A DNA stretch of 52,082 nucleotides. Source: a virus. The notes beneath the pieces were generated by a model, which worked only from the letters and a program-made list of their open reading frames with translations, did not search any database and had not been told where the DNA came from. Below are positions 4,714 to 38,575 of this stretch, piece by piece; position 1 is the stretch's first letter; each line of letters begins with the position of its first letter. The position numbers and the translations under genes were made by a program. The DNA is taken from the IMG/VR virus record IMGVR_UViG_3300045988_090625; one strand, 5' to 3'.

Positions 4714-5078
4714 CAACTTTTGAAGGGTTGTCTATTGGAAAAAACAAAACAGTACAAGTAAAGTTTAAACTCAGATATGATGAAATTCTTACTTCGGTAG
4801 AATTATTACAGGGTTTAAACAATGATATTACTGTACATGCTAAAGGTGCTACCGGAAAGGCTCAGAACCTTGGGTTGTTTACTATTGGAGCAGTAAACTT
4901 TGACAAAGATGGTAATGCAACAATACCTTTTAAAGCACTTGTAGATAATGTTAATCTGGATGCTATTTGTAACTTAGTTGATGAAGAATACATTCAGTTA
5001 CGTTTTATGGCAGTATTAGAATTGCCAGATGCAAATGTAGAAGATGCAGAAGGAGGTGAGGACGAATGGCAAGATTAA
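4683..5078 (+). CDS. Hypothetical protein
   Basis: 131-aa ORF beginning at TTG 4683; start uncertain, overlaps upstream gene by 31 nt. Confidence 0.55.
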   Translation: MEKKFKQKGIATFEGLSIGKNKTVQVKFKLRYDEILTSVELLQGLNNDITVHAKGATGKAQNLGLFTIGAVNFDKDGNATIPFKALVDNVNLDAICNLVDEEYIQLRFMAVLELPDANVEDAEGGEDEWQD

Positions 5079-5359
5079 GTTACACTGAAATCTGTAAAGA
5101 ACGTATCAAAGAAAAAAGGAACATTGTTATTTCTGAAACATTTGATAGCGAAGGCAAATTCATGGGTTATTCAGTAACAGAACAGCTTGTAGCAGAAGAA
5201 AATGGGAAAGAAGTAAATGTATTCCTTAAAAACAGCCTTGGTATTTTAGATGACAATGGATTACTTGGGCTTTACAATGCAATAGAATATGCATGTGAGA
5301 AAGCAGGGTTAATTCAGTTTAATGTTCCAGAAGAACAGAAAGAAGAAAATACAAATTAA
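5066..5359 (+). CDS. Hypothetical protein
   Basis: 97-aa ORF, GGAGGTGAGG RBS 5052-5061. Confidence 0.65.
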   Translation: MARLSYTEICKERIKEKRNIVISETFDSEGKFMGYSVTEQLVAEENGKEVNVFLKNSLGILDDNGLLGLYNAIEYACEKAGLIQFNVPEEQKEENTN

Positions 5360-5362
5360 GTA

Positions 5363-5391
5363 TTGACAAATAAAACACAAAATGTTAAAAT
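5363..5391 (+). promoter_or_regulatory. Sigma70-like promoter with extended -10 (TGTTAAAAT)
   Basis: TTGACA 5363-5368, N17, TAAAAT 5386-5391 preceded by TGT; followed by ~110-nt leader containing (TCAAA)x3. Confidence 0.55.
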
Positions 5392-5503
5392 GTATTTGTA
5401 ACAAATAAATACACACATTAAACTCTATTCAAATCAAATCAAACACAAAAGAAGAACCATTCACTAAGCTAAAATCAAGAAAAAGAAAAGAGAGGTAAAA
5501 GAA

Positions 5504-6235
5504 ATGGCAAAGAATTGGACAGCTTATGAAGCCGCAAAAGAAATTTATGGAGACAACAAAGAGAACATTGCAGAGATTGGAAGCAGATTTCCATTATTCG
5601 CAAGAACAATCGCAATCTTGAACAATGATTATGTTCTGGATATTCTGAAAGCAATTCCGAAGGTTACTGCAAGAGTTGTTGAAACTGGTCTGAAAGAAAT
5701 GGAAGTTGACGCAGACGTTGAAACAGATGCAGAAACAGAAGTGGAGGAAAAACCAGTTAAAAATACAAAGAAAACAAAATCAGCAGTAGAAGAGGATGAC
5801 GCAGAAGGAACATATGAGAGCATGACAAGCAAAGAGCTGTATGCACTGTGCTGTAAGAGAGGTATTTCTTCCAAGTGCAAATCACGTTCCAAAGATGCAT
5901 TGATTGAACTGTTAAACAAATATGATGCAGGCGAACTTGATGATGAGCCGAAAGCCAAAGCAGGTAAGAAAACAAAACCGGCAAAAAAAGCAGAGCCAGT
6001 TGAGGATGATACAGAAGATGAAGACTGGGACGATGACGATGACGAAGAGGAAGAAGAGAAAGACCCATATGCAGGTAAAACAGCCAGAGAACTGTTTGCA
6101 ATGTGCAAGGAGCGTGGTCTTAAAACAAAACCAAAACAGTCAGCAGAGAGTTATGCAAAACTTCTGAAAGAGGATGATGCGGCAGACGCAGATGATGAAT
6201 CTGAGGAAGATGAAGATGACGAATGGGAAATCTAA
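5504..6235 (+). CDS. Highly acidic protein with two HeH/SAP-like motifs and a '...DEDDEWEI' tail
   Basis: 243 aa; 'MTSKELYALCCKRGISSKCKSRSKDALIELL' and 'KTARELFAMCKERGLKTKPKQSAESYAKLL'; D/E tracts; C-terminal ~100 aa paralogous to C-terminus of ORF 41107-41919. Confidence 0.75.
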   Translation: MAKNWTAYEAAKEIYGDNKENIAEIGSRFPLFARTIAILNNDYVLDILKAIPKVTARVVETGLKEMEVDADVETDAETEVEEKPVKNTKKTKSAVEEDDAEGTYESMTSKELYALCCKRGISSKCKSRSKDALIELLNKYDAGELDDEPKAKAGKKTKPAKKAEPVEDDTEDEDWDDDDDEEEEEKDPYAGKTARELFAMCKERGLKTKPKQSAESYAKLLKEDDAADADDESEEDEDDEWEI

Positions 6236-16264: not shown

Positions 16265-16582
16265 ATGAGTGAAGCAGAAGTCATAGGCACTATGATTATA
16301 GGGTTATCAGCTATTGTTGGGTTGTTTTTGTCTATATACAAACCATTAAGTGATAACACAAAAGCAATGACAATCCTCACATCAAACATAGAACATTTAG
16401 CAGAGAAGATAGATGAACAAAATAAAAAAATTGAAGAACAAGAAAAAGCATTGTTACAGTACAAAGACCATATGAGAGATTCGCAAAAAAGGCAATGGGA
16501 CAAGTTAGATGAACATGAAAAAACATTACAACAAGTAAGCCATGCACTAGAAATGTGCAAACAAGAACATGAAAAGGAGTGA
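16265..16582 (+). CDS. Membrane-anchored coiled-coil protein of the lysis cassette (XhlA/BhlA-like role)
   Basis: 105 aa; N-terminal TM 'VIGTMIIGLSAIVGLFLSIY' then charged coiled coil; position before holin. Confidence 0.45.
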   Translation: MSEAEVIGTMIIGLSAIVGLFLSIYKPLSDNTKAMTILTSNIEHLAEKIDEQNKKIEEQEKALLQYKDHMRDSQKRQWDKLDEHEKTLQQVSHALEMCKQEHEKE

Positions 16583-16589
16583 CAAACAT

Positions 16590-16817
16590 ATGTTTAAAAA
16601 TTGTGTATTTAAAGCAAATGTAGATACCGTAGAATGGATTAAAAAAGCAGGAGTAAGAGCAATCAAAACAGTGGCACAAACAGCAGTAGCATTAATTGGT
16701 ACAAGTGCATTTTTGGAAGCTGTGGATTGGAGAATGGTGGTATCTGGTGCAGTGTTAAGTGGCATTATAAGCGTATTAACAAGTATTGGTGGTATTCCAG
16801 AAGTAGAAGCAAAATAA
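16590..16817 (+). CDS. Holin (LL-H-family-like)
   Basis: 'IKTVAQTAVALIGTSAF...WRMVVSGAVLSGIISVLTSIGG', two hydrophobic helices. ATG 16590 chosen (GGAG 16576-16579) over track start 16569. Confidence 0.65.
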   Translation: MFKNCVFKANVDTVEWIKKAGVRAIKTVAQTAVALIGTSAFLEAVDWRMVVSGAVLSGIISVLTSIGGIPEVEAK

Positions 16818-16860
16818 ATGGCTCAAATTGGCATATAAAGCGTTTAGGAGGTATGCATAA

Positions 16861-17898
16861 ATGAAAATCAGTGTAAGTGCAGGTCATAATCCAAGTGGAA
16901 AAATTGCATGTGGTGCATGTGATTTGTTAGATGAATCGTGGGAAAATAGACTTATCACAGGAGAAATGGTAAGTATTCTAAAACAAAGTGGTGTAACAGT
17001 TTGGGACGATACAGAGAACAATGGAACAGGAAAAAATGATGTTCTAAACAAATGTATTCGTAAAACAAATTCGCATGGTGTTGACCGTTCTTGTCAAATC
17101 CATTTAAACAGCGGAAGAAATGACAATTCTGGTGATGGAAAACAAGCAGGATTTGAAGTATGGTTATGCGGTACAAATAACGGAAAAGCTGAGATCGCAG
17201 AACTTGCCAGAAAGAACATGGTTAAACTTGGATTTGTTGACCGTGGAACAAAAGTAACAAATAAACTAAAGTATTTGAACAGAACAACATGTCCTGCATT
17301 GTTATTTGAAGTTTGTTTTGTCGATGATAAAGACGATTATGATTTGTATAACAAAGTAGGTTATAAGGCTGTTGCAAAAGCATTAGCATATGCAATGATG
17401 GGAAAGGAATTAAACATTGGAGAAGTAATGAATAATGGTTTTACAGGTTTGTCAGATACAGCAGATGTGGATGGCAATTGGTACTATTATGAAAATGGTA
17501 AAAAGTCAAACAAAACAACTGTTGCAAAAAACAAAAATGGTTGGTGGCATGTTATAAATGGAAAAGTAGATTTTACATCAAACACTGTTGCCAAGAATGA
17601 GTTTGGTTGGTGGAAGATATTCAATGGCGCTGTTGATTTTGGTTATACTGGAATCGCACAAAATGAAAACGGATGGTGGAGAATCGAAAACGGAAAAGTA
17701 AACTTTGATTATACAGGTTTGGCAAAAAATGAAAATGGATGGTTCTACCTGCAGGGAGGCGCAGTAAACTTCAATTATACTGGACTGGCACAAAATGAAC
17801 AAGGAGTATGGTTTGTTCACAATGGAAAAGTAGATTTTAATTATACTGGAACATTAGAAACAAAAGTAAATGTTTCTGGTGGAAAAGTTCAGTTTTAA
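16861..17898 (+). CDS. Endolysin: N-acetylmuramoyl-L-alanine amidase with C-terminal wall-binding repeats
   Basis: '[10 protein letters not shown]', 'IHLNSG', 'GFEVW' fit Amidase_3; six ~22-aa repeats 'NGWWxIxNGKVDFxYTGxAxNE'; AGGAGG RBS. Confidence 0.85.
17473..17856 (+). repeat. Six tandem ~66-bp coding repeats (CW_binding_1-like)
   Basis: [10 protein letters not shown].. / [13 protein letters not shown].. / [13 protein letters not shown].. / [13 protein letters not shown].. / [13 protein letters not shown].. / [13 protein letters not shown].. Confidence 0.8.
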
Positions 17899-18041: not shown

Positions 18042-19616
18042 ATGTCAAAAGAAATAAAAGATGAACAACAAAGGGCTGATGTTGTATTAGCCTTAAAAAG
18101 TTTTCCTTATTTTGTTTTGAATAAGGAAGTAGAACAAGGATTGAATCTTTATAGACAGGAACTTTTAGAGATTCAAAGGAACTATATCAGTTATAGAGAA
18201 GGAGCAAGGTTTTATCCAATCGGAACAGCAGGAGATTATATTCCAAGTAGAATTAATTTCAAAATCGCAAAAACCTTACTTGATAAAGAAGCACGTTTTA
18301 TGTTTAGCCAAACACCAGAAATTAATGTGGTGGGAAATGACACATCAGATGAAGAAGAACAAGTTTTAGCACAATATCAAAAAGTAATTGATGAAGTTAT
18401 TAAAAATAGCAAGTTCTCAAAGAAATTGATTCAGAGTGCAAAAGATTGTTTCATCGGAAAAAGAATTGCAATACTCGCAGACATTTCAGAGCAGGATGGA
18501 ATTAAGTTACATTTTTATAATGCATTACAATTTTATTTTGAAACAGATTATGATACAGAAAGATTGACAAAGTTTGTTAGTTTTGAAAACGTAACACAGA
18601 GTAGAACACAAAGGGAGAGAAGATTTTTAGTAAATAAATATTATGAAAGTAATGGAACAATTTATTTCAGTTCTATTTTGTATGATGGTTCTGGAAAAGA
18701 AATTGAAGTTTTGTTTGAAGAACATTCGTTAGACCTTGAACACATTCCTGCTGTCATCATAACAAATGATGGAACATTAGAGGATAAAATGGGAGTATCG
18801 GAGATTGAGGACTTAATGGATGAAGAAAGCGGTTTTTCAAAATTGGCAAATGCGGATGTCGACAGTGAACATAAGGGAATGAACCCTATTCGTTATACAG
18901 TTGATATGAATGGTCAAACAACAAAGAACCTTAATTCTGGAGCAGGTGCGTATTGGGATTTAAAGAGTGAACAAAACCAGAATGAAGTACATCCCAGCGT
19001 TGGAATGATTGCACCAGCTATGAACCATGTAGAAGCAGTTAAAACAACATTAGACAGAATTAAAACATCTATGTATGGACAGTTGGATGTTCCAAACATT
19101 TCTGAGGAAACAATGGCAGGAACAATAACTAGCGGAAAAGCATTAAAGGCATTGTATTATCCACTGCAAGTAAGATGTGATGAAAAGATGAAAACATGGA
19201 TTCCTGCACTTGAAACAATATTTATGCATGTAATTTCATTGGCAAAGCTAAACAGCGAAATTATAAAGGAATTGTACAAAGTAGAATCGTTACAAGACAT
19301 ACAGTATACGATTAACGTGGTAGAACAATATGCATTAATGGAAGATGAACAAGAAGAAAAAGATAATGACATTGCGGAAATTAATGCAAATGCACGAAGC
19401 AGAAAGTCTTATATCAAAAAGTGGCGCAAGGATGAATTTAAAACAGATGCACAGATTGATGAAGAGTTGATGCAGATTGCATTAGAACAAAATATGTTCG
19501 ACACATTAAGTATGAACACAAATGTACAAACAGAATTGAACAAACAGCAAACAGAACAAACAGTTGAAGAAGGAATTGAAAAAATTGATGTTCAAAATAA
19601 ATTAGAAAATTTATAA
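18042..19616 (+). CDS. Portal protein (SPP1 gp6-like)
   Basis: 524 aa; precedes a MuF/gp7-like gene; acidic coiled C-terminus; size and order typical. Confidence 0.75.
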   Translation: MSKEIKDEQQRADVVLALKSFPYFVLNKEVEQGLNLYRQELLEIQRNYISYREGARFYPIGTAGDYIPSRINFKIAKTLLDKEARFMFSQTPEINVVGNDTSDEEEQVLAQYQKVIDEVIKNSKFSKKLIQSAKDCFIGKRIAILADISEQDGIKLHFYNALQFYFETDYDTERLTKFVSFENVTQSRTQRERRFLVNKYYESNGTIYFSSILYDGSGKEIEVLFEEHSLDLEHIPAVIITNDGTLEDKMGVSEIEDLMDEESGFSKLANADVDSEHKGMNPIRYTVDMNGQTTKNLNSGAGAYWDLKSEQNQNEVHPSVGMIAPAMNHVEAVKTTLDRIKTSMYGQLDVPNISEETMAGTITSGKALKALYYPLQVRCDEKMKTWIPALETIFMHVISLAKLNSEIIKELYKVESLQDIQYTINVVEQYALMEDEQEEKDNDIAEINANARSRKSYIKKWRKDEFKTDAQIDEELMQIALEQNMFDTLSMNTNVQTELNKQQTEQTVEEGIEKIDVQNKLENL

Positions 19617-29745: not shown

Positions 29746-29760
29746 AGGTAGGTGAAAAAA

Positions 29761-30699
29761 ATGATTAAAAACGTAACAATTACAAACAAACAAACATATG
29801 AACAAATTGAAATAGGTGCGAAAGCACCTTTTGTTTTAGACAGTATTGATTGGGGAAGTGCATCAGTAGAACAAACAGGTTACAGAGTTCCGTTTCAAAT
29901 TGGCGAGTTTAAAACAGGGGAAGTTGTTGGAACTAGACAAGTCAGCATAGTTGGTTATGTTGTTGCTGATGATGTAACAGGGGTAGGAAAGTCTTGGAAA
30001 CAGTATTATGAAGATTGCGAAAAAAAAATCGAAGAAAACAAATTGTTGCTTGACAAATTATTTTCTATATATTATAATGTGAGTATAGAAACAGGAGAGT
30101 ACAGGATAGAAGGAGTACCAACAACAGCGGTGAAATATTCAACAAATGAAGAGGACAACAACGAAGTATTTTGCATGTTTTCGGTAGTTTTAAAATGTTT
30201 CAATCCAATGTTTGTAAAAGGTGGGACGAAACAAACACAGCTTGCAACAACAAGTGGTAAGTTACATTTTCCATTGATTATAAAGCAGGGTGGTGTTGTT
30301 TTTGGGGAAATAATAAAAAGGAGAAGCGTACCAATATTAAATAGTGGCGATTCGGATGCAGGATGCTTGATAACGATATTTGCTGATGGTGGAATCGTAA
30401 AAGACCCAAAGATATACATTATACAAACAGAAGAATTTTTGGAATTTAAAGATGTCACGTTGCAACCGGGGGATTATATAACAGTAACAACAGAAACAGG
30501 GAAAGAAAATGCAATCTTGCATGATGCATCTGAAACAAAAGAAATAAACGTAATAGGTCATCTAACAAATGATAGTAAGTTCATAAAAATAAAAAAAGGA
30601 ACTTATGATTATGCATATAGTGTTGATGAACAATATATGTCAAATGTAGATGTTAAAATCGAATTTGAAGAACAGTATTTCAATATAAGAGGGATGTAA
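29761..30699 (+). CDS. Distal tail protein (Dit)
   Basis: Position after tape measure; ~313 aa. ATG 29761 after AAAGGTAGGTG (track begins at GTG 29752). Confidence 0.65.
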   Translation: MIKNVTITNKQTYEQIEIGAKAPFVLDSIDWGSASVEQTGYRVPFQIGEFKTGEVVGTRQVSIVGYVVADDVTGVGKSWKQYYEDCEKKIEENKLLLDKLFSIYYNVSIETGEYRIEGVPTTAVKYSTNEEDNNEVFCMFSVVLKCFNPMFVKGGTKQTQLATTSGKLHFPLIIKQGGVVFGEIIKRRSVPILNSGDSDAGCLITIFADGGIVKDPKIYIIQTEEFLEFKDVTLQPGDYITVTTETGKENAILHDASETKEINVIGHLTNDSKFIKIKKGTYDYAYSVDEQYMSNVDVKIEFEEQYFNIRGM

Positions 30700-30700
30700 G

Positions 30701-32317
30701 ATGATTGAAATTTTAGATAGTTTTTTGAAAAAGGTCGACATACTCAGAAAATATACATATGCTCAGTATACAGAAGAATTTAGAGGAATTGGAAGTTTTA
30801 AAATTAATGTTCCAATAATTGAAGAAAACAAATATCTTTTAGATGAAACCGAACAATATTATGTTTTGTTTGACACAAAAAGAAATGGGAAAAATAAAAA
30901 AATTCTAGGAATTGTTGACAAAGTTGAAAAAGAAGCTGATTCGGACTACGATAATCAATATACATTGTCTGGTAGAATGGCACAGTTTGTTTTAAACAGC
31001 AGGGTAATAAAAGGAACATTTTCTTATTCTGGTAATACTGCAAACTTTGTAAGCGGAATAATATATGACAACATTTTAAAGAACAAAGATGATAGATATA
31101 TTCCAATTAATATAAGTCTTGAAGATGCAACAAAGTTAAATAATCAGTGCAGTAAAATTGATAAGCAAGTTACAGGCGGTTATATATGGGATGAAATAGA
31201 ACCTGTGTTAGAACAGGATGGGCTTGGACTTATAATTGAACCGAACATTATAACCGAAAAAGTTATTGATGGAAACAAAACAAACATAGAAGGATTATCA
31301 TTAACAATAACACTTGGGGCAGATAGAAGAAAGTGGAATAAGGAAAACAATATTTCAGTTGTTTTTTCGCAAAGTCTTAGCAACATTAGTAGGACATCAT
31401 ATACAAGGGACACAACAAATTACACAAATGTTGCATATACAGCCGGAGAGGGAGAAGAGGAAAGCCGAAAATGGTATGAGATTGAAATAAATAGTGATGT
31501 AAAAAGCAAAAACAAAAAAGGAATAGGTCGTAGGGAACTATGGATTGATGCAAGGGACATTCAAAGTGTACAAGATGATAAGACTCTGACGGATAAAGAA
31601 TATGAAACGCTAATAAAGCAAAGAACGAATGAAAAAGCGGCAGAAGCAACGGAAACAAGAACATATGAATCAACATTAACCGAGCAAAACAAACAGTATG
31701 TTTTTGGAATTGATTACAACATCGGAGATTGGTGTACAGTAATTGATAGCGAATTAGAAAAAGTGCTAGATGTGCAAATAGTTACAGTTGTGCATACTAT
31801 ACAAGGAACAGGAACACAAGAAATTATTGACGTCGGATTTTCATACGGTTTAAAACAAAACATGGATGTATTGAAGGAAACAAGGGAAAGTGCAAATAAA
31901 ATCGAGAACAATAATGTAAACATAAAGTATCTTGACAATAAACAAAAGACATTGGATAATAGGGTTGAAAATCTTGAAAATGGATTGGAACAACTTCCGA
32001 CAATACCAGCTGACGAATTTACTTTGTCGAACGATGGAGAATGGTACAAATATGGGAAGAGGACATTCATAAAATTGAATGGTTTGTATGTTGGAGATGT
32101 GGCAAGCTGTCCATATCCACCAAAGGGAGGAAATGTGTGGCAGTATGTTATTTTGTTAAACATGAATAACGGAACATGGTGGCATGGATTTATGAAAATT
32201 AGTATTGATGGCAGTGTTTCATTCAAAACAATAGCAAGCATTGGAGCAACAGATTTATATGATTGTACAGGAAATAATTTTACAGTGTATGGATATGTTG
32301 ACTTTTTCAATGAATAG
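30701..32317 (+). CDS. Tail-associated protein (Tal / siphovirus Gp37-like)
   Basis: 538 aa; N-terminus 'MIEILDSF...FRGIGSFKINVP' typical of this family; coiled-coil then C-terminal head domain. Confidence 0.65.
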   Translation: MIEILDSFLKKVDILRKYTYAQYTEEFRGIGSFKINVPIIEENKYLLDETEQYYVLFDTKRNGKNKKILGIVDKVEKEADSDYDNQYTLSGRMAQFVLNSRVIKGTFSYSGNTANFVSGIIYDNILKNKDDRYIPINISLEDATKLNNQCSKIDKQVTGGYIWDEIEPVLEQDGLGLIIEPNIITEKVIDGNKTNIEGLSLTITLGADRRKWNKENNISVVFSQSLSNISRTSYTRDTTNYTNVAYTAGEGEEESRKWYEIEINSDVKSKNKKGIGRRELWIDARDIQSVQDDKTLTDKEYETLIKQRTNEKAAEATETRTYESTLTEQNKQYVFGIDYNIGDWCTVIDSELEKVLDVQIVTVVHTIQGTGTQEIIDVGFSYGLKQNMDVLKETRESANKIENNNVNIKYLDNKQKTLDNRVENLENGLEQLPTIPADEFTLSNDGEWYKYGKRTFIKLNGLYVGDVASCPYPPKGGNVWQYVILLNMNNGTWWHGFMKISIDGSVSFKTIASIGATDLYDCTGNNFTVYGYVDFFNE

Positions 32318-32353
32318 TAGTATGATATGTATATAAAACAAAGGAGGTTAATT

Positions 32354-33430
32354 ATGGCAGAAAATAGTGGTTTTTTTAATGCAATCGAAACAGCAGGAGT
32401 GTATGACCGTGTATATGATGCGAGTGATTTTGCAAAGCTGTTTAGTTTGTTTATGACGAATGGTGTGTTCGTAAATCCAACAGACCAATTAAAGGTCGTT
32501 GCAAAATCTGGATTAACAGTAACAGTAAAAGCGGGACGTGCTTTTATTGATGGGTATTGGTATGAACTGACAGAAGATACAATCATAACAATGAGTTCTA
32601 ATACAAGTGCATACCCTATCAATTCAGTTGTGACATGTAAACTGGATAAGAGTAAAAGAACAATTAAAATTGATAAAAGGGATGCAGTTGTGAGTACAAA
32701 TCCTGTTAATACAGACACAATACATGAACTTGTACTTGCAGTCATAGCAATAGGGGTAGGGGTCAGCACAATAACAAATGCTAACATAACAGACACAAGG
32801 GCGAACAACAATTATTGCGGATTCGTAACAGGAGCGGTAAAACAAATTGAAACGACAGATTTGTTTAATCAGTTCGAAGATGCTTTTGGTGCATGGTTTG
32901 AAAAAATGAAAGACCAACTTTCAGAAGATGCGGCAGGAAATTTACAAAACCAAATTGATGGCATGTCAATACAGGATTATTATTCGCTTGACAAAATTCC
33001 TGTAACAGTGAATAATACAAGTGCTACAAGTAAAGCAACATTTCTGCTTGGTTCTGTTGGCGGCTTAGTTATTGGAGGGCTGACAGATGGAATATATTGT
33101 GTTTCTATCGCACTGAAATGGAAAAGCGGGACAGCACCTTTTGAGGGTAAAGTAGCAAATGTCAAAGCAAGCATAACAAAAAAACAAAACATTGCAACGG
33201 ATGGTTTACAGCCGGTAGATGTGATAGTTAGAAGCTATGAAACATCTACTGTGATAGCAAGCAATGGGACAGTATTAATCACGTTTGTATTACCTTTAAA
33301 AATTGCAAATGATAATACGCTGGTGGTTAGAGTTTCAGATATTGCAGGTAATATCGTAATGCCATCAAATGCAAATAATTTGATTTATGATGTTACAGCA
33401 ACTTTCGAGAAATTTTTGAGCGATTATTAA
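32354..33430 (+). CDS. Tail fibre / receptor-binding protein
   Basis: 'SGFFNAIETAGVYDRVYDASDFAKLFSLFMTNGVF' is a common Firmicutes-phage fibre N-terminus. ATG 32354 after AAGGAGG (track starts 32327). Confidence 0.65.
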   Translation: MAENSGFFNAIETAGVYDRVYDASDFAKLFSLFMTNGVFVNPTDQLKVVAKSGLTVTVKAGRAFIDGYWYELTEDTIITMSSNTSAYPINSVVTCKLDKSKRTIKIDKRDAVVSTNPVNTDTIHELVLAVIAIGVGVSTITNANITDTRANNNYCGFVTGAVKQIETTDLFNQFEDAFGAWFEKMKDQLSEDAAGNLQNQIDGMSIQDYYSLDKIPVTVNNTSATSKATFLLGSVGGLVIGGLTDGIYCVSIALKWKSGTAPFEGKVANVKASITKKQNIATDGLQPVDVIVRSYETSTVIASNGTVLITFVLPLKIANDNTLVVRVSDIAGNIVMPSNANNLIYDVTATFEKFLSDY

Positions 33431-33446: not shown

Positions 33447-33752
33447 ATGGATGATGAATTAAACAAACTCATGTTTGAAACACAAAAACAATATAAGAAG
33501 TCGAACAAATTAAAAGATAAAATCATTATCTTATTAACAGTATTAATGTTTGCAGAAGCAGTAATCTTTTATGGTGGGTTCGTTTGGTATGAAAGTCAGT
33601 TTGATTATGTGTCAACAGAACAAAGTACAGAAACGCAGGATGTTGATGTTTCAACGAGTGGAGAAAATGCAAACGAAGAATACAATGACAATGATATACA
33701 GGGAAATCAATATAATGGCAATGCCGTACATAATGAGGGCGGTGAGCAATAA
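33447..33752 (+). CDS. Single-pass membrane protein with acidic C-terminus
   Basis: TM 'IIILLTVLMFAEAVIFYGGFVW'; 101 aa. Confidence 0.6.
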   Translation: MDDELNKLMFETQKQYKKSNKLKDKIIILLTVLMFAEAVIFYGGFVWYESQFDYVSTEQSTETQDVDVSTSGENANEEYNDNDIQGNQYNGNAVHNEGGEQ

Positions 33753-33901
33753 TGGCAAAAGCGAGCGTACACGTAACAAAGTCTACAACGAAAACACACA
33801 CAACAGTTAAGGTTGGGAAGTCACGAAACAAAAGTGGCGGTAATCCAAACAGATGCCCTGTTTGTGGCAAATTCACATCGAAAGGTGGGAGTAAGGCATG
33901 A
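33752..33901 (+). CDS. Small basic protein with one CxxC (49 aa; not in track)
   Basis: MAKASVHVTKSTTKTHTTVKVGKSRNKSGGNPNRCPVCGKFTSKGGSKA; TAATG and ATGA coupling on both sides. Confidence 0.5.
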   Translation: MAKASVHVTKSTTKTHTTVKVGKSRNKSGGNPNRCPVCGKFTSKGGSKA

Positions 33902-34131
33902 ACAAGGAACAGAGAGAAGTTAGAAAAAGATTAAAAGGAATAAACACCGTGAAACAATTTGAAGAAATGCTGGATAGCGTTTTGATTTCAGAAGAAGAGA
34001 GAAGAATCTTAAATCTGATTTACAAAGAACAAAAGCCGTTCTCAATAGTAGCAGATGAAATCGGAATATCTGAAAGAACGCTAACAAGAAAACACGCAAA
34101 GTTACTAATGAAAATAGGAAGTATGTTTTGA
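33898..34131 (+). CDS. Sigma-70 region-4-like HTH transcriptional regulator
   Basis: 'EERRILNLIYKEQKPFSIVADEIGISERTLTRKHAKLLMKI'; 77 aa, too short for a full sigma factor. Confidence 0.6.
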   Translation: MNKEQREVRKRLKGINTVKQFEEMLDSVLISEEERRILNLIYKEQKPFSIVADEIGISERTLTRKHAKLLMKIGSMF

Positions 34132-34135
34132 TTAA

Positions 34136-34160
34136 GGGACACCGAAAGGTGTCCTTTTTT
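34136..34160 (+). terminator. Intrinsic terminator (GAAA tetraloop)
   Basis: GGACACC-GAAA-GGTGTCC followed by TTTTTT. Confidence 0.9.
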
Positions 34161-34247
34161 ATTTGTCCTTTTATTGGCGTTTATGTGGCATATATAGCGG
34201 TTTGAATTTGATATATTATAAGCATACAAGGAAGGAGGGAAAAACCG

Positions 34248-34709
34248 ATGTATGGAGTAAATAACAGCATACAACAGCAATTGGCACAAAATAGAATGAA
34301 CCAACTTGAGACACAATATAACAATATGTTTCCACAACAATATATGCAACAGCCAATGCAAATGCAACAACAAATGCAAGTACCACAGTACCAACAGCAG
34401 AATGTACAAACATTAAAAGGCAGACCAGTATCAAATGTGGATGAAGCAAAGGCAAGCATGATTGATTTAGATGGAAGTTTGTTTGTTTTTCCAGATGTAG
34501 CAAATGGTTGCATTTATACAAAACAAATAATGCTTGATGGAACAGCAGAGTTCAAAACATATAGAATTGTTGGTGAACAAAAACCAAAACAAACAAATGA
34601 TGAATATGTTTTACGTTCAGAGTTTCAAAAACAATTACAATGTATAAATGCAGAACTTAAAAGATTGAGAGGTACAGAAAATGAACATGATGAATATGTT
34701 TCAGAATAA
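34248..34709 (+). CDS. Hypothetical protein with Q-rich N-terminus
   Basis: 153 aa; 'QQYMQQPMQMQQQMQVPQYQQQN', then a globular region 'LKGRPVSNVDEAKASMIDLDGSLFVFPD'; GGAAGGAGGG RBS. Confidence 0.7.
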   Translation: MYGVNNSIQQQLAQNRMNQLETQYNNMFPQQYMQQPMQMQQQMQVPQYQQQNVQTLKGRPVSNVDEAKASMIDLDGSLFVFPDVANGCIYTKQIMLDGTAEFKTYRIVGEQKPKQTNDEYVLRSEFQKQLQCINAELKRLRGTENEHDEYVSE

Positions 34710-34863
34710 CCCAATGTTTCAAAGGGCACAGCAAATGGTACAAGGAAAGTCGGAAAAAGAAATAGAACAAATTGCAAGTAATTTGTGCAAACAAAGAGGA
34801 ATAAACATAAACGATGCTTTTGAACAATTTAAACAATTCAAAAGCCAATTCGGTATCAAGTAG
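34681..34863 (+). CDS. Small hypothetical protein (M/N/Q-rich N-terminus)
   Basis: 60 aa; GAGAGGT RBS 8 nt upstream; overlaps upstream gene by 29 nt. Confidence 0.55.
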   Translation: MNMMNMFQNNPMFQRAQQMVQGKSEKEIEQIASNLCKQRGININDAFEQFKQFKSQFGIK

Positions 34864-34916
34864 GTATAAGCGTATAAAAGCGTTTATATAAATAAAATTT
34901 TTTAGGAGGTAACATT

Positions 34917-35615
34917 ATGAGTATGGACGGAAATGGACTTAGCGTAGCCGATGCATTAGCACTTGGAAGGGACAACGACGGAATGTTTGGTGATGGCAAT
35001 GGCAGTTGGATTTTCTTCCTTTTCTTTCTCCTTGCATGGGGTGGAAATTTTGGAAACTGGGGAGGTAATGGAATGAACAGCACAGCAAGCGCATATACCG
35101 ATAGCGCAATCCAGAGAGGATTTGATAACCAAGCAGTCATGAACAAACTTAACGGTCTGGAAAATGGTATTTGTGATGGTTTTTATGCTGTCAATACTTC
35201 CTTGCTTAATGGCTTTAATGGAACACAACAGGCAATTAACAACGTAGCAGTTGCAGGTATGCAGAACACAAATGCATTAGCAACACAGCTTTCCGATTGT
35301 TGTTGCACAACACAAAGAAGTATTGATGCAGTACGTTATGAAAACGCTAGAAACACCTGTGACATTGTAAATGCTATTAAAGCAGATGGTGATGCAACAA
35401 GAGCATTAATGACACAGAATGAAATTCAGAGTTTGCGTGACCAGTTACAAAATGCAAACTTCCAGTTAAGTCAGCAGGCTCAGAACGCAACACTGATTGC
35501 GACATTAAGACCTACACCAATTCCTGCATATCAGACATGTTCACCATATGAGAGTGCTTACATGTACTCAAGATGTGGATGTGGAAATAGCTATAATACA
35601 GGATGCGGCTGTTAA
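34917..35615 (+). CDS. Membrane protein with Gly/Trp/Asn juxtamembrane tract, N/Q-rich helical region and Cys clusters
   Basis: 232 aa; TM 'SWIFFLFFLLAW', 'GGNFGNWGGNG', 'DCCCTT', C-terminal 'CGCGNSYNTGCGC'; TAGGAGG RBS. Confidence 0.7.
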   Translation: MSMDGNGLSVADALALGRDNDGMFGDGNGSWIFFLFFLLAWGGNFGNWGGNGMNSTASAYTDSAIQRGFDNQAVMNKLNGLENGICDGFYAVNTSLLNGFNGTQQAINNVAVAGMQNTNALATQLSDCCCTTQRSIDAVRYENARNTCDIVNAIKADGDATRALMTQNEIQSLRDQLQNANFQLSQQAQNATLIATLRPTPIPAYQTCSPYESAYMYSRCGCGNSYNTGCGC

Positions 35616-35659
35616 AAAGGTCAAATAGTGATTTATCCGCTTTATGCGTGAATTTGTAG

Positions 35660-35687
35660 GGGCGGTGATTAAACCGCCCTTATTTTG
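35660..35687 (+). terminator. Intrinsic terminator inside the orphan cluster
   Basis: GGGCGGT(35660-35666)/ACCGCCC(35673-35679), loop GATTAA, then TTATTTT. Confidence 0.75.
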
Positions 35688-35730
35688 GCATATAATGGCT
35701 TATAAAGGTATTAGAAAGGAGCATAATAAA

Positions 35731-36105
35731 ATGGCATGTAGTTTATACAACAATAATGGTTATGGCTGTGGCGGTTGTGTACATTTTGTAAAAACAAATA
35801 GCGTAACTCTTACAGACAATGTTTTGATTTTAAACATTCCACAGGCAACATATTCAAACAAAGAAAAAGTATGTATTTGTATTGCACAAGCAATTCCAGA
35901 AGTGACAAGTGCAGATACAGTAGCAGTAACAATTGGAGCAGGAGCAACACAGTATGTGCTTAGAACAAAGTGTGGAAACAATGTTCATGCCGACCAGTTA
36001 CGAAGCAGAAAAGTATATCACACAAATGTAGCAACGGATGTTGGAACTTTTATGGTATCAAGCTGTGAACTTAATGGGACAGCATTTAATTTCCCAACAA
36101 TTTAG
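35731..36105 (+). CDS. Cys-rich beta-type hypothetical protein
   Basis: 124 aa from ATG 35731 (AAAGGAG RBS). The track start 35644 lies inside the terminator. 'MACSLYNNNGYGCGGCVHF'. Confidence 0.65.
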   Translation: MACSLYNNNGYGCGGCVHFVKTNSVTLTDNVLILNIPQATYSNKEKVCICIAQAIPEVTSADTVAVTIGAGATQYVLRTKCGNNVHADQLRSRKVYHTNVATDVGTFMVSSCELNGTAFNFPTI

Positions 36106-36118
36106 GAGGTGAACAAGA

Positions 36119-36868
36119 ATGACAATTAATGAATCACAGTACAACAAACAGAACATGAATGAAACAAACATGGCAATGCAGGATGAACAGCCTTGGAATG
36201 TTGAAACAAGTAAAAGAACAAACTATATGAACAGAACAGGAATGACGGACAGGGAAAAAGAACAAAAGGCAGAGGAAATTTATCTGAAATTAGATGAACA
36301 TATGCAGAAAGCACTTGCATTGCATGAACAGTTAGCAGATTATTTTTGTTTCCTTGGTTTGCAGGGATTCAAACGTAAACTGGAATATCAGTATATGTGC
36401 GAAGTAGCAGGCAAAAGGAAGTTGCATCACAAGTACGTAAATATGCATCATAAATTAATTCCTATGCGACAGGTAGAAGTTCCGCACCTTATTCCAAACG
36501 AATGGAGCAGATATACAACACTTGACGTGAATGACAACGTATTGCCTAAGTATGTCAAGTCTGCTATGGAACAATACAAAGAATGGGAAGAAAAAACAAA
36601 ACAGCTGTATGAGGATTTATGGCAGGAGTGCATCGCATATGGAATGACAGCGGATGCTGAATATATTTCAGACCTTGTTTCTGACGTAACAAAAGAAATT
36701 AAGAAAGTAAATAGAATGTGTGAACAGCTTAATGGAACAGGATATGATGCAACAGCAATTCATACAATGCAAGATAAGTTCCATGAAAAATACAAAAAGA
36801 AATACGAAGATGAATACACAGATAAAACAATTCGTAAAATGAAGAAACAAAATAAAACAAATGAATAA
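36119..36868 (+). CDS. Hypothetical helical protein, weak ferritin-like resemblance
   Basis: 249 aa; 'LADYFCFLGLQGFKRKLEYQYMCEVAGKRKLHHKYVNMHHKLIP' loosely parallels ferritin helices A-B; AGGAGGTG RBS. Confidence 0.65.
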   Translation: MTINESQYNKQNMNETNMAMQDEQPWNVETSKRTNYMNRTGMTDREKEQKAEEIYLKLDEHMQKALALHEQLADYFCFLGLQGFKRKLEYQYMCEVAGKRKLHHKYVNMHHKLIPMRQVEVPHLIPNEWSRYTTLDVNDNVLPKYVKSAMEQYKEWEEKTKQLYEDLWQECIAYGMTADAEYISDLVSDVTKEIKKVNRMCEQLNGTGYDATAIHTMQDKFHEKYKKKYEDEYTDKTIRKMKKQNKTNE

Positions 36869-36872
36869 CCTT

Positions 36873-36935
36873 ATAAGCTATATATTATATAATATAATTA
36901 TATTTATATTATGTTTTATATAGCTTATTTTTTTA
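36873..36935 (+). terminator. A/T-only long hairpin plus T7 run (terminator or structural element)
   Basis: ATAAGCTATATA(36873-36884)/TATATAGCTTAT(36917-36928), perfect 12 bp, 32-nt A/T loop, then TTTTTTT. Confidence 0.55.
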
Positions 36936-36972: not shown

Positions 36973-37000
36973 TTGACTTTTATGTTCATTGTGTTATAAT
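36973..37000 (+). promoter_or_regulatory. Sigma70-like promoter
   Basis: TTGACT 36973-36978, 16-nt spacer, TGTTATAAT ending 37000. Confidence 0.6.
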
Positions 37001-37053
37001 AAAATCAAGTTAAGGAACTAAACAAAATAAGAAAACAACAGAGAGGTAAGAAT

Positions 37054-37395
37054 ATGAAGAAAAGAACATTTAAAACAGAAATGAAATTAGACTTACGTCA
37101 GCCAAGATTAAACAAAAATAATACCATTGAAGAGTACACGGAACAATTGATAGACAAAAATGAGTATCACAATATAAAGGCAGTTTGTTCAATGGCTTTT
37201 ATTATGAACAACACAGAGTTTGAATGTTTTAAAAATAGTCTATTAAAAGATTATGACTTCTTAAAAGATGTTCCTTGTGGATGTGAGAAAGATTATACAC
37301 AGTATGTTGTGATGATTGTAAACGAAGAAACAAAACAAAAGTTTTTTGTAAATACACAAGGTTATAGTTATGCAAGATATTGTTTATTTGATTAA
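37054..37395 (+). CDS. Hypothetical protein
   Basis: 113-aa ORF, GAGAGGT RBS. Confidence 0.65.
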   Translation: MKKRTFKTEMKLDLRQPRLNKNNTIEEYTEQLIDKNEYHNIKAVCSMAFIMNNTEFECFKNSLLKDYDFLKDVPCGCEKDYTQYVVMIVNEETKQKFFVNTQGYSYARYCLFD

Positions 37396-37412
37396 AAAAA
37401 AATATAATTAAG

Positions 37413-37444
37413 GGGTTGACAAGTTCAACCCTTTGATATATAAT
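37413..37444 (+). promoter_or_regulatory. Hairpin-embedded promoter
   Basis: GGGTTGA(37413-37419)/TCAACCC(37425-37431) stem contains the -35 TTGACA 37416-37421; N17; TATAAT 37439-37444. Confidence 0.6.
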
Positions 37445-37496
37445 TAAGACATAAAGAACAAGAGAAAACAACCGTAGAAGAAAAGGAGAAAATAAA

Positions 37497-37802
37497 ATGA
37501 GTAAATATGTAAAAAGAGGAACACTGGTAATTGACAAAGAGACAAACAAGAAGATGTACCCAGTAGGAAAATGGAACACTTATTCACATGTGTTCTATAA
37601 CTACAATGATAGATGTTTCAATAACATGATGGAACAGAACACAGAAAAGAGTGAAAAACAGTTTGAAACAGCCGAGAGATTGCTGGAACTGTTCGAGAGA
37701 AATCCGAGAGTGAATGACATTGTATATGCATACTATGAGGATTATAGAAAAATGCGCGATGTAATTGAAGCGTATGTGTTTAGACATGGTGGAAGAATTT
37801 AG
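37497..37802 (+). CDS. Hypothetical protein
   Basis: 101-aa ORF, AAAGGAG RBS. Confidence 0.65.
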   Translation: MSKYVKRGTLVIDKETNKKMYPVGKWNTYSHVFYNYNDRCFNNMMEQNTEKSEKQFETAERLLELFERNPRVNDIVYAYYEDYRKMRDVIEAYVFRHGGRI

Positions 37803-37810
37803 TTAAAAAA

Positions 37811-37860
37811 GTTTTGATTATACTATTGACAAATAAAAATGTTAGTAGTATAATCAAAAC
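37811..37860. repeat. Perfect 14-bp inverted repeat bracketing a promoter
   Basis: GTTTTGATTATACT 37811-37824 and AGTATAATCAAAAC 37847-37860, 22-nt spacer. Confidence 0.9.
37826..37854 (+). promoter_or_regulatory. Sigma70-like promoter
   Basis: TTGACA 37826-37831, N17, TATAAT 37849-37854 (the -10 lies inside the right arm of the inverted repeat). Confidence 0.6.
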
Positions 37861-37901
37861 ATAAAATAAAACAGAGGACAAGTTGGAGGAGAAAAACAGA
37901 A

Positions 37902-38189
37902 ATGAAAAAATTTACACAGTTTTCAAAAGTAGCAATCATTGATAAGGATGGAAATACAAATCCTTGGTGTGGAACAAAGAATGATGATGAAAGCAACTAT
38001 CTGACATTCAAATATTGGCACAAAGGAAACTATGAAAGAATCTATGTAAATGATTATAAGCGAAGAACAGTAGGTTACATTGATTTAGCAACAGAGGAAA
38101 TTGTTTCAGATTATTCAAACAACAGTGACTATGTAAGAACAATGAACTTTTTCTTAGAAAATTATGAAATTGATGTTGACAACAAATAA
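37902..38189 (+). CDS. Hypothetical protein
   Basis: 95-aa ORF, TTGGAGGAG RBS. Confidence 0.65.
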   Translation: MKKFTQFSKVAIIDKDGNTNPWCGTKNDDESNYLTFKYWHKGNYERIYVNDYKRRTVGYIDLATEEIVSDYSNNSDYVRTMNFFLENYEIDVDNK

Positions 38190-38204
38190 AAAGTGTGGTA
38201 ATAT
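38176..38204 (+). promoter_or_regulatory. Sigma70-like promoter (TGGTAATAT -10)
   Basis: TTGACA 38176-38181 inside the end of the upstream ORF, N17, TAATAT 38199-38204 with TG at 38196-38197. Confidence 0.5.
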
Positions 38205-38245
38205 ATAATCACAGAAACAAAGAAAACAAATTGGAGGAAATAAAA

Positions 38246-38431
38246 ATGAAAGATAATAGAATTGTGAGAGCAGAACTTTTAAATGATGAAACAAAGAAGC
38301 CGCTACTGGATGCGGTAGAAGAACTTAGAAAACAGGTTCTTGGAGAAAGCAAAATAAAATATCCAGAGCAGTATGTCGTTGAAGTAAATGGCAAAAGATA
38401 TGACAAGAGATTTTATAAAGGAGCAATGTAA
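38246..38431 (+). CDS. Hypothetical protein
   Basis: 61 aa from ATG 38246. Its 26-nt leader plus RBS is identical to that of gene 175-939. The track start 38195 lies in the promoter. Confidence 0.6.
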   Translation: MKDNRIVRAELLNDETKKPLLDAVEELRKQVLGESKIKYPEQYVVEVNGKRYDKRFYKGAM

Positions 38432-38550
38432 TGAAAAAAAGAAAGTTGTCCAGATGGACAAAAGAAGCAATAGAAACTATTGGAACAATAGTAATAACAA
38501 TTGCAATGGGATATGCAATGTTAATAATTTTTGGATTATTTTTTTGTTGA
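38431..38550 (+). CDS. Small membrane protein (39 aa; not in track)
   Basis: MKKRKLSRWTKEAIETIGTIVITIAMGYAMLIIFGLFFC; AAAGGAG 7 nt upstream; stop overlaps the next -35. Confidence 0.5.
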   Translation: MKKRKLSRWTKEAIETIGTIVITIAMGYAMLIIFGLFFC

Positions 38551-38575
38551 CAAATAAAATATTATGTGTTAATAT
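38547..38575 (+). promoter_or_regulatory. Sigma70-like promoter (TGTTAATAT -10)
   Basis: TTGACA 38547-38552, N17, TAATAT 38570-38575 with TG 38567-38568. Confidence 0.55.

Follow-up and report, generated by a model that had tools for sequence, protein, structure and literature searches.

Which function is encoded by a cluster of small genes that closes the late region of a phage genome? The question is raised by the IMG/VR virus record IMGVR_UViG_3300045988_090625, a stretch of DNA of 52,082 nucleotides that was analyzed over its whole length (the window; position 1 is its first letter). It is a phage genome of ~52 kb with 33% G+C, in which all genes lie on the + strand, and since related contigs of 52.4-52.7 kb exist, the stretch is probably the entire genome. 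An earlier note, made from the letters alone, had described five genes at 34165-36868, which follow a regulator resembling region 4 of sigma factors, as a terminator-bounded cluster of orphans. These genes and that of the regulator are here called p0 to p5 (aa, amino acids):

33898-34131, + strand: p0, a 77-aa protein with a helix-turn-helix (HTH) like that of sigma-70 region 4; first gene of the conserved module
34248-34709, + strand: p1, 153 aa, with a Q-rich N-terminus, a core of ~50 aa and a C-terminal coiled-coil-like tail
34681-34863, + strand: p2, 60 aa, a small helical protein rich in M, N and Q
34917-35615, + strand: p3, 232 aa, containing WIFFLFFLLAWGG, CCC and a C-terminal CGCG..GCGC
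35731-36105, + strand: p4, 124 aa with seven Cys, a predicted eight-strand beta-sandwich with a Cys-rich N-terminal peptide
36119-36868, + strand: p5, 249 aa, a predicted ferritin fold behind a disordered N-terminus of 45 aa rich in N, Q and M

The five open reading frames (ORFs) p1-p5 were recovered as described, with starts at 34248, 34681, 34917, 35731 and 36119. Numerous homologues were identified for each of them, and they are therefore genuine genes and not chance ORFs. The p4 start was placed at 35731, as homologues of p4 all begin with M-x-C; a longer ORF from 35644 crosses a terminator.

The cluster is one copy of a widespread, syntenic phage module that is located at the very end of the late (tail and lysis) region. 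When one genome per GTDB species was scanned, 135 relatives of p3 were identified and 80 loci were fetched. Most of these are phage-like contigs of 35-55 kb from metagenome-assembled genomes (MAGs) and some are prophages in contigs of 0.28-2.5 Mb. Iterative profile searches over the ORFs of 85 loci resulted in the following homologues, positions being given from the start of p3:

p0: in 55 of 85 loci, at -1.0 kb
p1: in 76 of 85 loci, at -0.7 kb
p2: in 56 of 85 loci, at -0.3 kb
p4: in 55 of 85 loci, at +0.75 kb
p5: in 12 of 85 loci, after p4

Gene order and spacing recur in ~80 loci, which bears out the view that the cluster is a discrete and co-conserved functional unit; a lack of co-conservation, which the earlier note had named as a ground for refutation, was not observed. 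The borders drawn for it have to be shifted, however: all five genes are present, but p0 upstream belongs to the unit as well and p5 is a variable accessory. The core of the module is p0-p1-p2-p3-p4, and it is followed by a sixth slot with changing content, which is occupied by a DUF7841 protein in 37 loci, by a ferritin-like p5 in 12 and by other families in the rest.

Among phage records searched by tblastn, p3 was found in 38 phages, p4 in 14, p1 in 10, p5 in seven and p2 in four. All five genes, in the same order, are present in Dulem virus 36, Clostridium perfringens phage XP41-N3 and bajarodcaudo virus 5, and in the last of these a p0 homologue (E = 1e-10) lies directly 5' of the module. 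The label of orphan does not hold. In a collection of 5.8 billion proteins p3 has >7,720 relatives (clusters at 90% identity), none of them named and none with a Pfam domain, and the core of p1 is represented by 728 clusters at 50% identity; a protein of >7,700 clusters is not an orphan. No function is described for the module in Pfam, PHROGs, NCBIfam or PADLOC and no description of it was found in the literature, and as a system it appears to be undescribed.

p3 on its own was detected in crAss-like phages (at least 14) and likewise in the cultured Bacteroides phage C3_41T2LP and two viruses that are assigned to Methanomassiliicoccales. Its homologues lie at 4989-5906 in the C3_41T2LP locus (L085) and at 4878-5759 in L086 (Caudoviricetes sp. 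vir215, host given as Methanomassiliicoccales). The carriers all come from gut or anaerobic habitats and their assigned hosts differ in envelope type, which argues for a role that does not depend on one envelope architecture.

In the window, the late region extends from the terminase area, via portal, capsid and tail genes, as far as a gene resembling those of receptor-binding proteins (RBPs) at 32327-33430 (phrog_1220). Between this gene and p1 lie, in this order, the gene for a membrane protein of 101 aa, an ORF of 49 aa and p0. Directly 3' of the module the early/replication region opens with consensus sigma-70 promoters (36973, 37416, 37826 and others). At 36973-38575 five near-consensus sigma-70 promoters were observed, two of them scoring 12/12 and each located before a small gene, and these mark the start of the early region.

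The transcriptional layout of the module is set by the following elements:

34134-34157, + strand: terminator hairpin between p0 and p1, a 10-bp stem and a T-run (z = -3.7)
35638-35680, + strand: p3-p4 intergenic element, a small hairpin (CGC-TTTAT-GCG, 35638-35648) followed by the terminator hairpin
35658-35680, + strand: terminator hairpin between p3 and p4, an 11-bp GC stem and then TATTTT (z = -3.8 for the region)
36873-36935, + strand: A/T hairpin and U-run closing the late region; the hairpin itself was placed at 36873-36928, with a 23-bp stem and U7 (folding free energy dG = -23.4, z = -7.9)

Both bounding hairpins and the internal terminator that had been described were thus found again, and within 34165-36868 no sigma-70 promoter scoring above 9/12 is present on the + strand, which agrees with the reported lack of a TTGACA promoter. 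With a detector that applies a simple perfect-stem rule, terminator-like hairpins were observed at the p0-p1 junction in 26 of 38 loci (68%), at the p3-p4 junction in 25 of 46 (54%) and between p3 and a BclA-like gene that can stand in the place of p4 in 15 of 23 (65%), compared with a background of 74 in 700 other junctions (11%). None was detected at the p1-p2 and p4-DUF7841 junctions. The terminators at p0-p1 and between p3 and the gene in the p4 slot, called the knob gene below, are conserved family-wide and divide the module into three units, [p0], [p1-p2-p3] and [knob gene plus sixth gene]. The description as terminator-bounded and internally split holds for the family as a whole.

The small hairpin before the p3-p4 terminator is also found in locus L005, Dulem virus 36, bajarodcaudo virus 5 and XP41-N3. 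The succession of small hairpin (CCGCTTWWWGCG), TGA and terminator hairpin lies at 35638-35680 in the window, at 9285-9335 in L001, at 6826-6870 in L004 and at 6625-6670 in L002. The two hairpins vary in concert in their arms, which read CCGC/GCGG in the window and CCTC/GAGG in XP41-N3, which hints at alternative pairing of the two, i.e. attenuation. Nothing in the intergenic regions matched Rfam, and a known structured RNA family was dropped as a candidate.

The first unit encodes p0, which is probably a late regulator, judging from its similarity to Sigma70_r4 (E = 1e-4; 22.2 bits against a cut-off of 24.1 for PF04545), the transcriptional regulators of phrog_36 (2e-9) and TIGR02937 (E = 1.7e-6, below its cut-off), and from weak matches to RinA (E = 0.007) and ArpU (0.087). 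Like the RinA and ArpU late regulators of phages of Gram-positive bacteria, it has a small HTH of the sigma-region-4 type and is encoded beside late or lysis genes. Unlike these, it consists of only 77 aa (region 4 alone), all its scores fall below curated cut-offs, and its gene is placed at the late operon's end instead of ahead of it. In a metagenomic protein of 212 aa (P0263), Sigma70_r4 (PF04545/PF08281) is joined to a segment 81% identical to the C-terminal 62% of p5, and this protein is either a p0-p5 fusion generated by deletion of p1-p4 or an assembly chimera.

In the second unit, p1 and p2 precede p3. The core of p1 follows the pattern RPVSS..EA..IDxDGS..F..D....IYTKQ...DG....Y.L and p1 matches phrog_21718. 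A scan of 61 diverse members gave no Pfam match and a profile search gave no PDB match, so that a relation to GerQ, SepF or Sm-like proteins was rejected. In Dulem virus 36, bajarodcaudo virus 5 and XP41-N3 a p2 homologue is encoded at the equivalent place (E = 3e-15 to 4e-12), and no family or solved relative of p2 was found.

p3 (phrog_16490, 3.8e-32) begins with an acidic N-terminal tail containing a conserved motif, followed by a short hydrophobic segment flanked by W and G and by a linker rich in Gly and aromatic residues. The remainder consists of a long N/Q-rich helical region with CCC and C148, the motif RPxPxPAY, and a Cys-rich C-terminus (GCxC). W..WGG, CCC, C148, RPxPxPAY and the terminal GCxC are invariant from Clostridium phages to crAss-like phages. 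The hydrophobic core spans ~11-15 residues between two Trp, and its Gly/aromatic flanks are without charge bias. Of the former description of p3 as a single-pass membrane protein, the hydrophobic Gly/Trp segment stands, but with a core of this length a canonical transmembrane (TM) helix is uncertain. Structural databases gave coiled-coil signals only, none of them significant; the single match to a viral spike, the heptad-repeat coiled coil of the coronavirus spike (E = 0.46), was insignificant, and p3 as a spike homologue was rejected. Homologues in crAss-like phages are labelled 'spike protein/glycoprotein' or 'outer capsid protein/viral fiber', and the label of spike glycoprotein is traced to the coiled-coil/heptad-repeat resemblance of p3.

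The third unit starts with the gene in the p4 slot. The examination by structure prediction that had been suggested earlier gave results for p4 and for p5. The AlphaFold2 (AF2) model of p4 (predicted local distance difference test, pLDDT, of 80) is an eight-strand beta-sandwich. C3, C13, C16, C48 and C50 are invariant, and the N-terminal Cys cluster is found family-wide, e.g. as MACKxxCxLC or MTCNRRCNCC. When the model was compared with BFVD by Foldseek, members of the p4 family were followed by tip domains from the C-termini of many tail fibres, RBPs and collagen-like fibres (E = 1e-5 to 1e-3, probability 1.0, query TM-score TMq 0.4-0.6). Against the PDB no significant neighbour was identified, the best E being 0.04, and one weak match was to a chain of the Pa193 baseplate/tail-fibre complex. 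Foldseek also pointed to a p4-like protein of 114 aa in the crAss-like phage cr271_1 and to a p4-like domain in a crAss-like 'DUF7841' protein.

At 24 loci the p4 slot is taken by a different family, which resembles BclA_C and C1q. Of 23 of these proteins that were scanned, 15 match PF18573 (BclA_C; best E = 8e-9), and the profile of the family matched F-BclA-CTD (9H38, E = 2.5e-5) and BclA structures in the PDB, the entries hit being 9H38, 3twi, 2z5w and 1wck. These BclA_C-like replacements carry few Cys.

Taken together, we tentatively favour the reading that the module encodes a late-made, Cys-crosslinked fibrillar assembly of stalk (p3) and knob (p4), located on the virion or on the cell membrane. 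p3 would oligomerize via its long N/Q-rich coiled coil into the stalk, which may be anchored by the short hydrophobic Gly/Trp segment near the N-terminus. p4 would be a knob with the beta-sandwich of a fibre tip, for which other phages would use the BclA-C/C1q-like domain. The knob could dock with its Cys-rich N-terminal connector onto the Cys-rich C-terminus of p3, through disulfides or a bridging metal. Owing to the terminator after p3, the stalk protein might be made in larger amounts than the knob. p1 and p2, presumed to be cytoplasmic and rich in N, Q and M, may act as assembly or adaptor partners, and timing could be set by p0 or by read-through from the late operon. p5 would be an optional add-on with a cage-type ferritin fold in which the site-B glutamates are kept and the site-A ligands are not, plausibly for the handling of metals or oxidants in phages of strict anaerobes.

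Known systems resemble such an assembly in part. In the BclA, L-BclA and F-BclA tip fibrils and Ena endospore appendages of Bacillus and Clostridia, as in the proposed module, a beta-sandwich knob of trimer type ends a fibrous stalk. The Cys-rich N-terminal peptide of p4 is reminiscent of the connectors of the Ena/L-BclA system, in which Cys-rich N-terminal connectors couple BclA-like fibrils covalently to Ena fibres (PMC12357932). In the 24 loci mentioned above, the knob gene is a true BclA_C/C1q-like homologue. Unlike in BclA, the stalk is a separate coiled-coil protein, p3, and not a collagen repeat within the same chain. Also unlike BclA and Ena, p4 of the window matches none of BclA_C, C1q and DUF3992, no exosporium leader is present, and the genes belong to the late region of phages that are assigned to non-sporulating hosts. 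In comparison with Ena subunits, p4 has the Cys-rich N-terminal peptide, but neither a DUF3992 hit nor a match to an Ena structure. Membership of p4 in the Ena or BclA families, which has support from neither Pfam nor the PDB, was rejected. The likeness to exosporium assemblies that the earlier note had pointed out is thus upheld in part, by the BclA-C/C1q-like protein in the p4 slot of 24 loci and by the Cys-rich N-terminus of p4. The link to host sporulation is unlikely, because relatives occur in phages assigned to Bacteroides, to crAss-like hosts and to methanogens.

Tail fibres are the second known system to be compared. The p4 model aligns with the distal beta-sandwich domains of phage tail-fibre and RBP tips, and the module follows tail genes. 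Unlike these tips, p4 stands alone as a protein of 124 aa and the TM-score is ~0.5. Unlike fibre genes, the module can sit away from structural genes, and Dit, Tal and RBP-like genes are in any case present elsewhere in the window (29752-33430).

Several observations weigh against the stalk-and-knob assembly. The likeness of p4 to fibre tips is moderate (TM-score ~0.5); p4 of the window has no Pfam hit, and no BclA, C1q or Ena structure was retrieved with it from the PDB by Foldseek. The contact between p3 and p4 is deduced only from their adjacent Cys-rich termini, and no co-variation between the type of p3 tail and the type of knob was evident. Plain virion parts do not usually come with an HTH gene of their own and with separate transcription units, and a terminator that lowers expression of the knob relative to the stalk is at odds with a simple fibre of 1:1 composition. 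In the crAss-like, Bacteroides and archaeal-virus records the profiles detect p3 only (and DUF7841 in one). The p3 gene of Bacteroides phage C3_41T2LP lies among recombination genes and not among structural genes, and in XP41-N3 the module follows an antirepressor gene. Furthermore, hosts were assigned from MAG binning and record annotation, which is unreliable for phage contigs.

That the stalk-and-knob fibrils are Cys-cross-linked into an exosporium-like nap, which would serve in gut adhesion or in the hardening and protection of progeny under oxygen and not in a host-specific step of infection, is conceivable, but we regard it as unlikely.

Superinfection exclusion or another action on the envelope, which the earlier note had mentioned, is a possible rival explanation. 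In it, the module would encode a late complex embedded in the membrane, which would affect the host envelope by way of lysis timing, completed envelope disruption or a block of superinfection, and we consider this explanation rather doubtful. p3 would be a single-pass protein with an extracytoplasmic coiled coil like that of fusogens or spanins, acting together with the membrane protein encoded upstream (TM101), and p1, p2, p4 and p5 would be on the cytoplasmic side. The upstream genes are:

33447-33752, + strand: TM101, a type-II-like membrane protein of 101 aa with a K-rich N-terminus, one TM segment and an acidic C-terminal tail, ending in ...NAVHNEGGEQ
33752-33901, + strand: 49-aa Lys-rich ORF with a CPVC motif; homologues in four loci, before p0

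The architecture of p3 recalls class-I fusion proteins and i-spanins, with which it shares a Gly-rich hydrophobic segment near the N-terminus, a long helical region of heptad-like character and a conserved Cys motif. The hydrophobic segment is conserved, but its core of ~11-15 residues and its flanks without charge bias argue against a membrane anchor of this kind. Unlike i-spanins and class-I fusion proteins, p3 has neither a second membrane anchor nor a lipoprotein partner, and the module occurs in phages of monoderm hosts, such as those of C. perfringens. p4, which starts with MAC, has no signal peptide or lipobox and does not provide an o-spanin partner; p3 and p4 were therefore not taken as a spanin pair. 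Membrane proteins do lie upstream of the module, namely TM101 and XhlA-like proteins, and TM101 homologues were found just 5' of p0 in 14 of 85 loci, a loose association with the module. Against an envelope-specific role in general speaks the assignment of the carriers to monoderm, diderm, wall-less and archaeal hosts. PADLOC gave no hit for p1-p5 among its defence and exclusion models, and a known anti-phage defence or exclusion system was rejected.

The position of the module bears on this rival as well. In relatives, holin and endolysin genes lie immediately 5' of the module. The window has a separate and complete lysis cassette at 16265-17898, away from the module and from the end of the tail block, with an XhlA/Rz-like TM protein, a holin (phrog_443) and an endolysin (phrog_435), the latter an amidase with cell-wall-binding repeats. 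The module as a lysis cassette in disguise was therefore rejected. Given where relatives have their lysis genes, relocation of the cassette in this phage seems to have taken place. In the window the cassette precedes a gene at 18042-19616, which was read as the portal gene from its position and size only.

A link to lysis may also lie in a rare motif, TGGC-N5-8-TGGCWTATAWAG, of which the window contains exactly three matches compared with zero expected, all of them intergenic and on the + strand:

16819-16840, + strand: motif copy before the endolysin gene
34175-34197, + strand: motif copy TGGC-N7-TGGCATATATAG, tentative candidate for a phage-specific promoter of p1-p2-p3
35686-35707, + strand: motif copy TGGC-N-TGGCWTATAWAG, tentative candidate for a promoter of p4-p5

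Two copies are located just 3' of the p0-p1 and p3-p4 terminators and the third just 5' of the endolysin gene; that one motif precedes the endolysin gene, p1 and p4 would speak for the envelope rival. The motif may be a phage-specific very-late promoter that ties the module to lysis. It is not kept in relatives, however: neither L005, which is 95% identical, nor any of the 86 loci contains it, so that it was rejected as a family-wide promoter dependent on p0, and sharing of motifs between two intergenic regions of one locus did not exceed the cross-locus control. The motif is a lead specific to the window only.

A redox or metal system for phages of strict anaerobes is an improbable reading. 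The Cys of p3 and p4 would bind Fe-S clusters or metal and p5 would store or detoxify iron and oxidants, shielding replication or progeny during exposure to oxygen. One argument comes from p5, for which the statement that no function could be assigned has to be revised. Its AF2 model (pLDDT 84.8; helices at 44-78, 82-110, 142-173, 177-205 and 211-234) has the four-helix bundle, the long B-C loop and the short fifth (E) helix of ferritins. The top 50 Foldseek neighbours in the PDB are all ferritins (E = 6e-5, target TM-score 0.78-0.84), and hhalign with AfFtn/EcFtnA gave E = 3.2e-5 at a probability of 73%. In a PDB profile search ferritins accounted for four of five hits, but at E = 0.17-0.57, and Pfam Ferritin was not hit. 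p5 is thus confidently predicted to have a ferritin fold, with the canonical ferroxidase centre retained only in part. E95, E157 and E193 are invariant and correspond to ferritin E50, E94 and E130. Of the complete centre (E17, Y24, E50, H53, E94, Q127 and E130 in EcFtnA numbering), which is not kept, Y24 is replaced by H69, H53 by G98 (variable), and E17 by M62 according to a manual count of the register on helix A, outside the region aligned by hhalign.

Like bacterial and archaeal Ftn, p5 has a four-helix bundle with an E helix and invariant equivalents of three glutamates; unlike Ftn, it carries the disordered extension of 45 aa, altered equivalents of E17, Y24 and H53 and no Pfam Ferritin hit. 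Genes of the ferritin superfamily are known from other gut phages. In 'Gratiaviridae', Dps and Mn-catalase genes have been noted and were interpreted as oxidative-stress tolerance (PMC8008677). In contrast to these and to Ftn, p5 is set in a non-metabolic module in which it is interchangeable with DUF7841. The redox reading can draw on the fold and invariant glutamates of p5, on the invariant CCC and terminal GCxC of p3, on CxxC and CxC of p4, on the gut or anaerobic habitats of all carriers and on the precedent in 'Gratiaviridae' (PMC8008677). However, p5 is present in 12 of 85 loci only, its place being taken elsewhere by the unrelated DUF7841 or by others, and is not part of the core; the ligands of ferroxidase site A are replaced; BclA_C-like proteins with few Cys can substitute for p4; and no match to an Fe-S or rubredoxin-type family was obtained.

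Other occupants of the sixth slot were not found to be diverged ferritins, as hhalign gave probabilities of <=3% for DUF7841 and the remaining families. At ~+1.2 to +2.2 kb from the start of p3, the gene next to the knob gene encodes a DUF7841 protein in 37 loci (within L010-L083). Tyr/Arg/Gly-rich proteins (clusters c8 and c14) are further options for the slot. In 17 loci a protein of ~122 aa with a conserved Cys...His...Asp, which looks like a small cysteine peptidase, is encoded further downstream.

A 'moron' or lysogenic-conversion cargo that mimics spore-coat or exosporium proteins of the host, as the earlier note had placed it in a cargo slot, is very improbable: its terminal position in the late region, genes with terminators of their own and a spore-coat-like make-up (Q-rich and Cys-rich proteins, a ferritin fold and, in relatives, a BclA_C-like protein) would fit, but core order and spacing are fixed over ~80 loci from species-level genomes of many phage lineages with only the sixth slot varying, the carriers include phages of hosts that do not sporulate, no integrase was noticed when the ORF translations of the window were read by eye (no dedicated search was made), and no PADLOC or toxin family was matched.

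If the stalk-and-knob assembly with an exosporium-like nap were true, the nap would be a structure common to phages of Clostridia, Negativicutes and Bacteroidota (crAss-like), and possibly to viruses of methanogens, in which p3 would be a polymeric or abundant stalk, p4 or BclA-like proteins the knobs, and p1 and p2 the assembly factors. Cultured carriers of the module are available in the C. perfringens phages XP41-N3, 17DYC, CPD1 and HMD-PC1, and for p3 alone in Bacteroides phage C3_41T2LP. p5 with its altered metal site is of separate interest for phage-encoded handling of metals or oxidants. The core proteins have not been assigned to Pfam or to any named family, and nevertheless they count among the more widely distributed phage gene sets in animal-gut metagenomes. 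Assigning a role to them would annotate thousands of 'hypothetical' genes, and it might uncover a structure of the virion or cell surface, or a late function, that is new and shared by phages of anaerobes.

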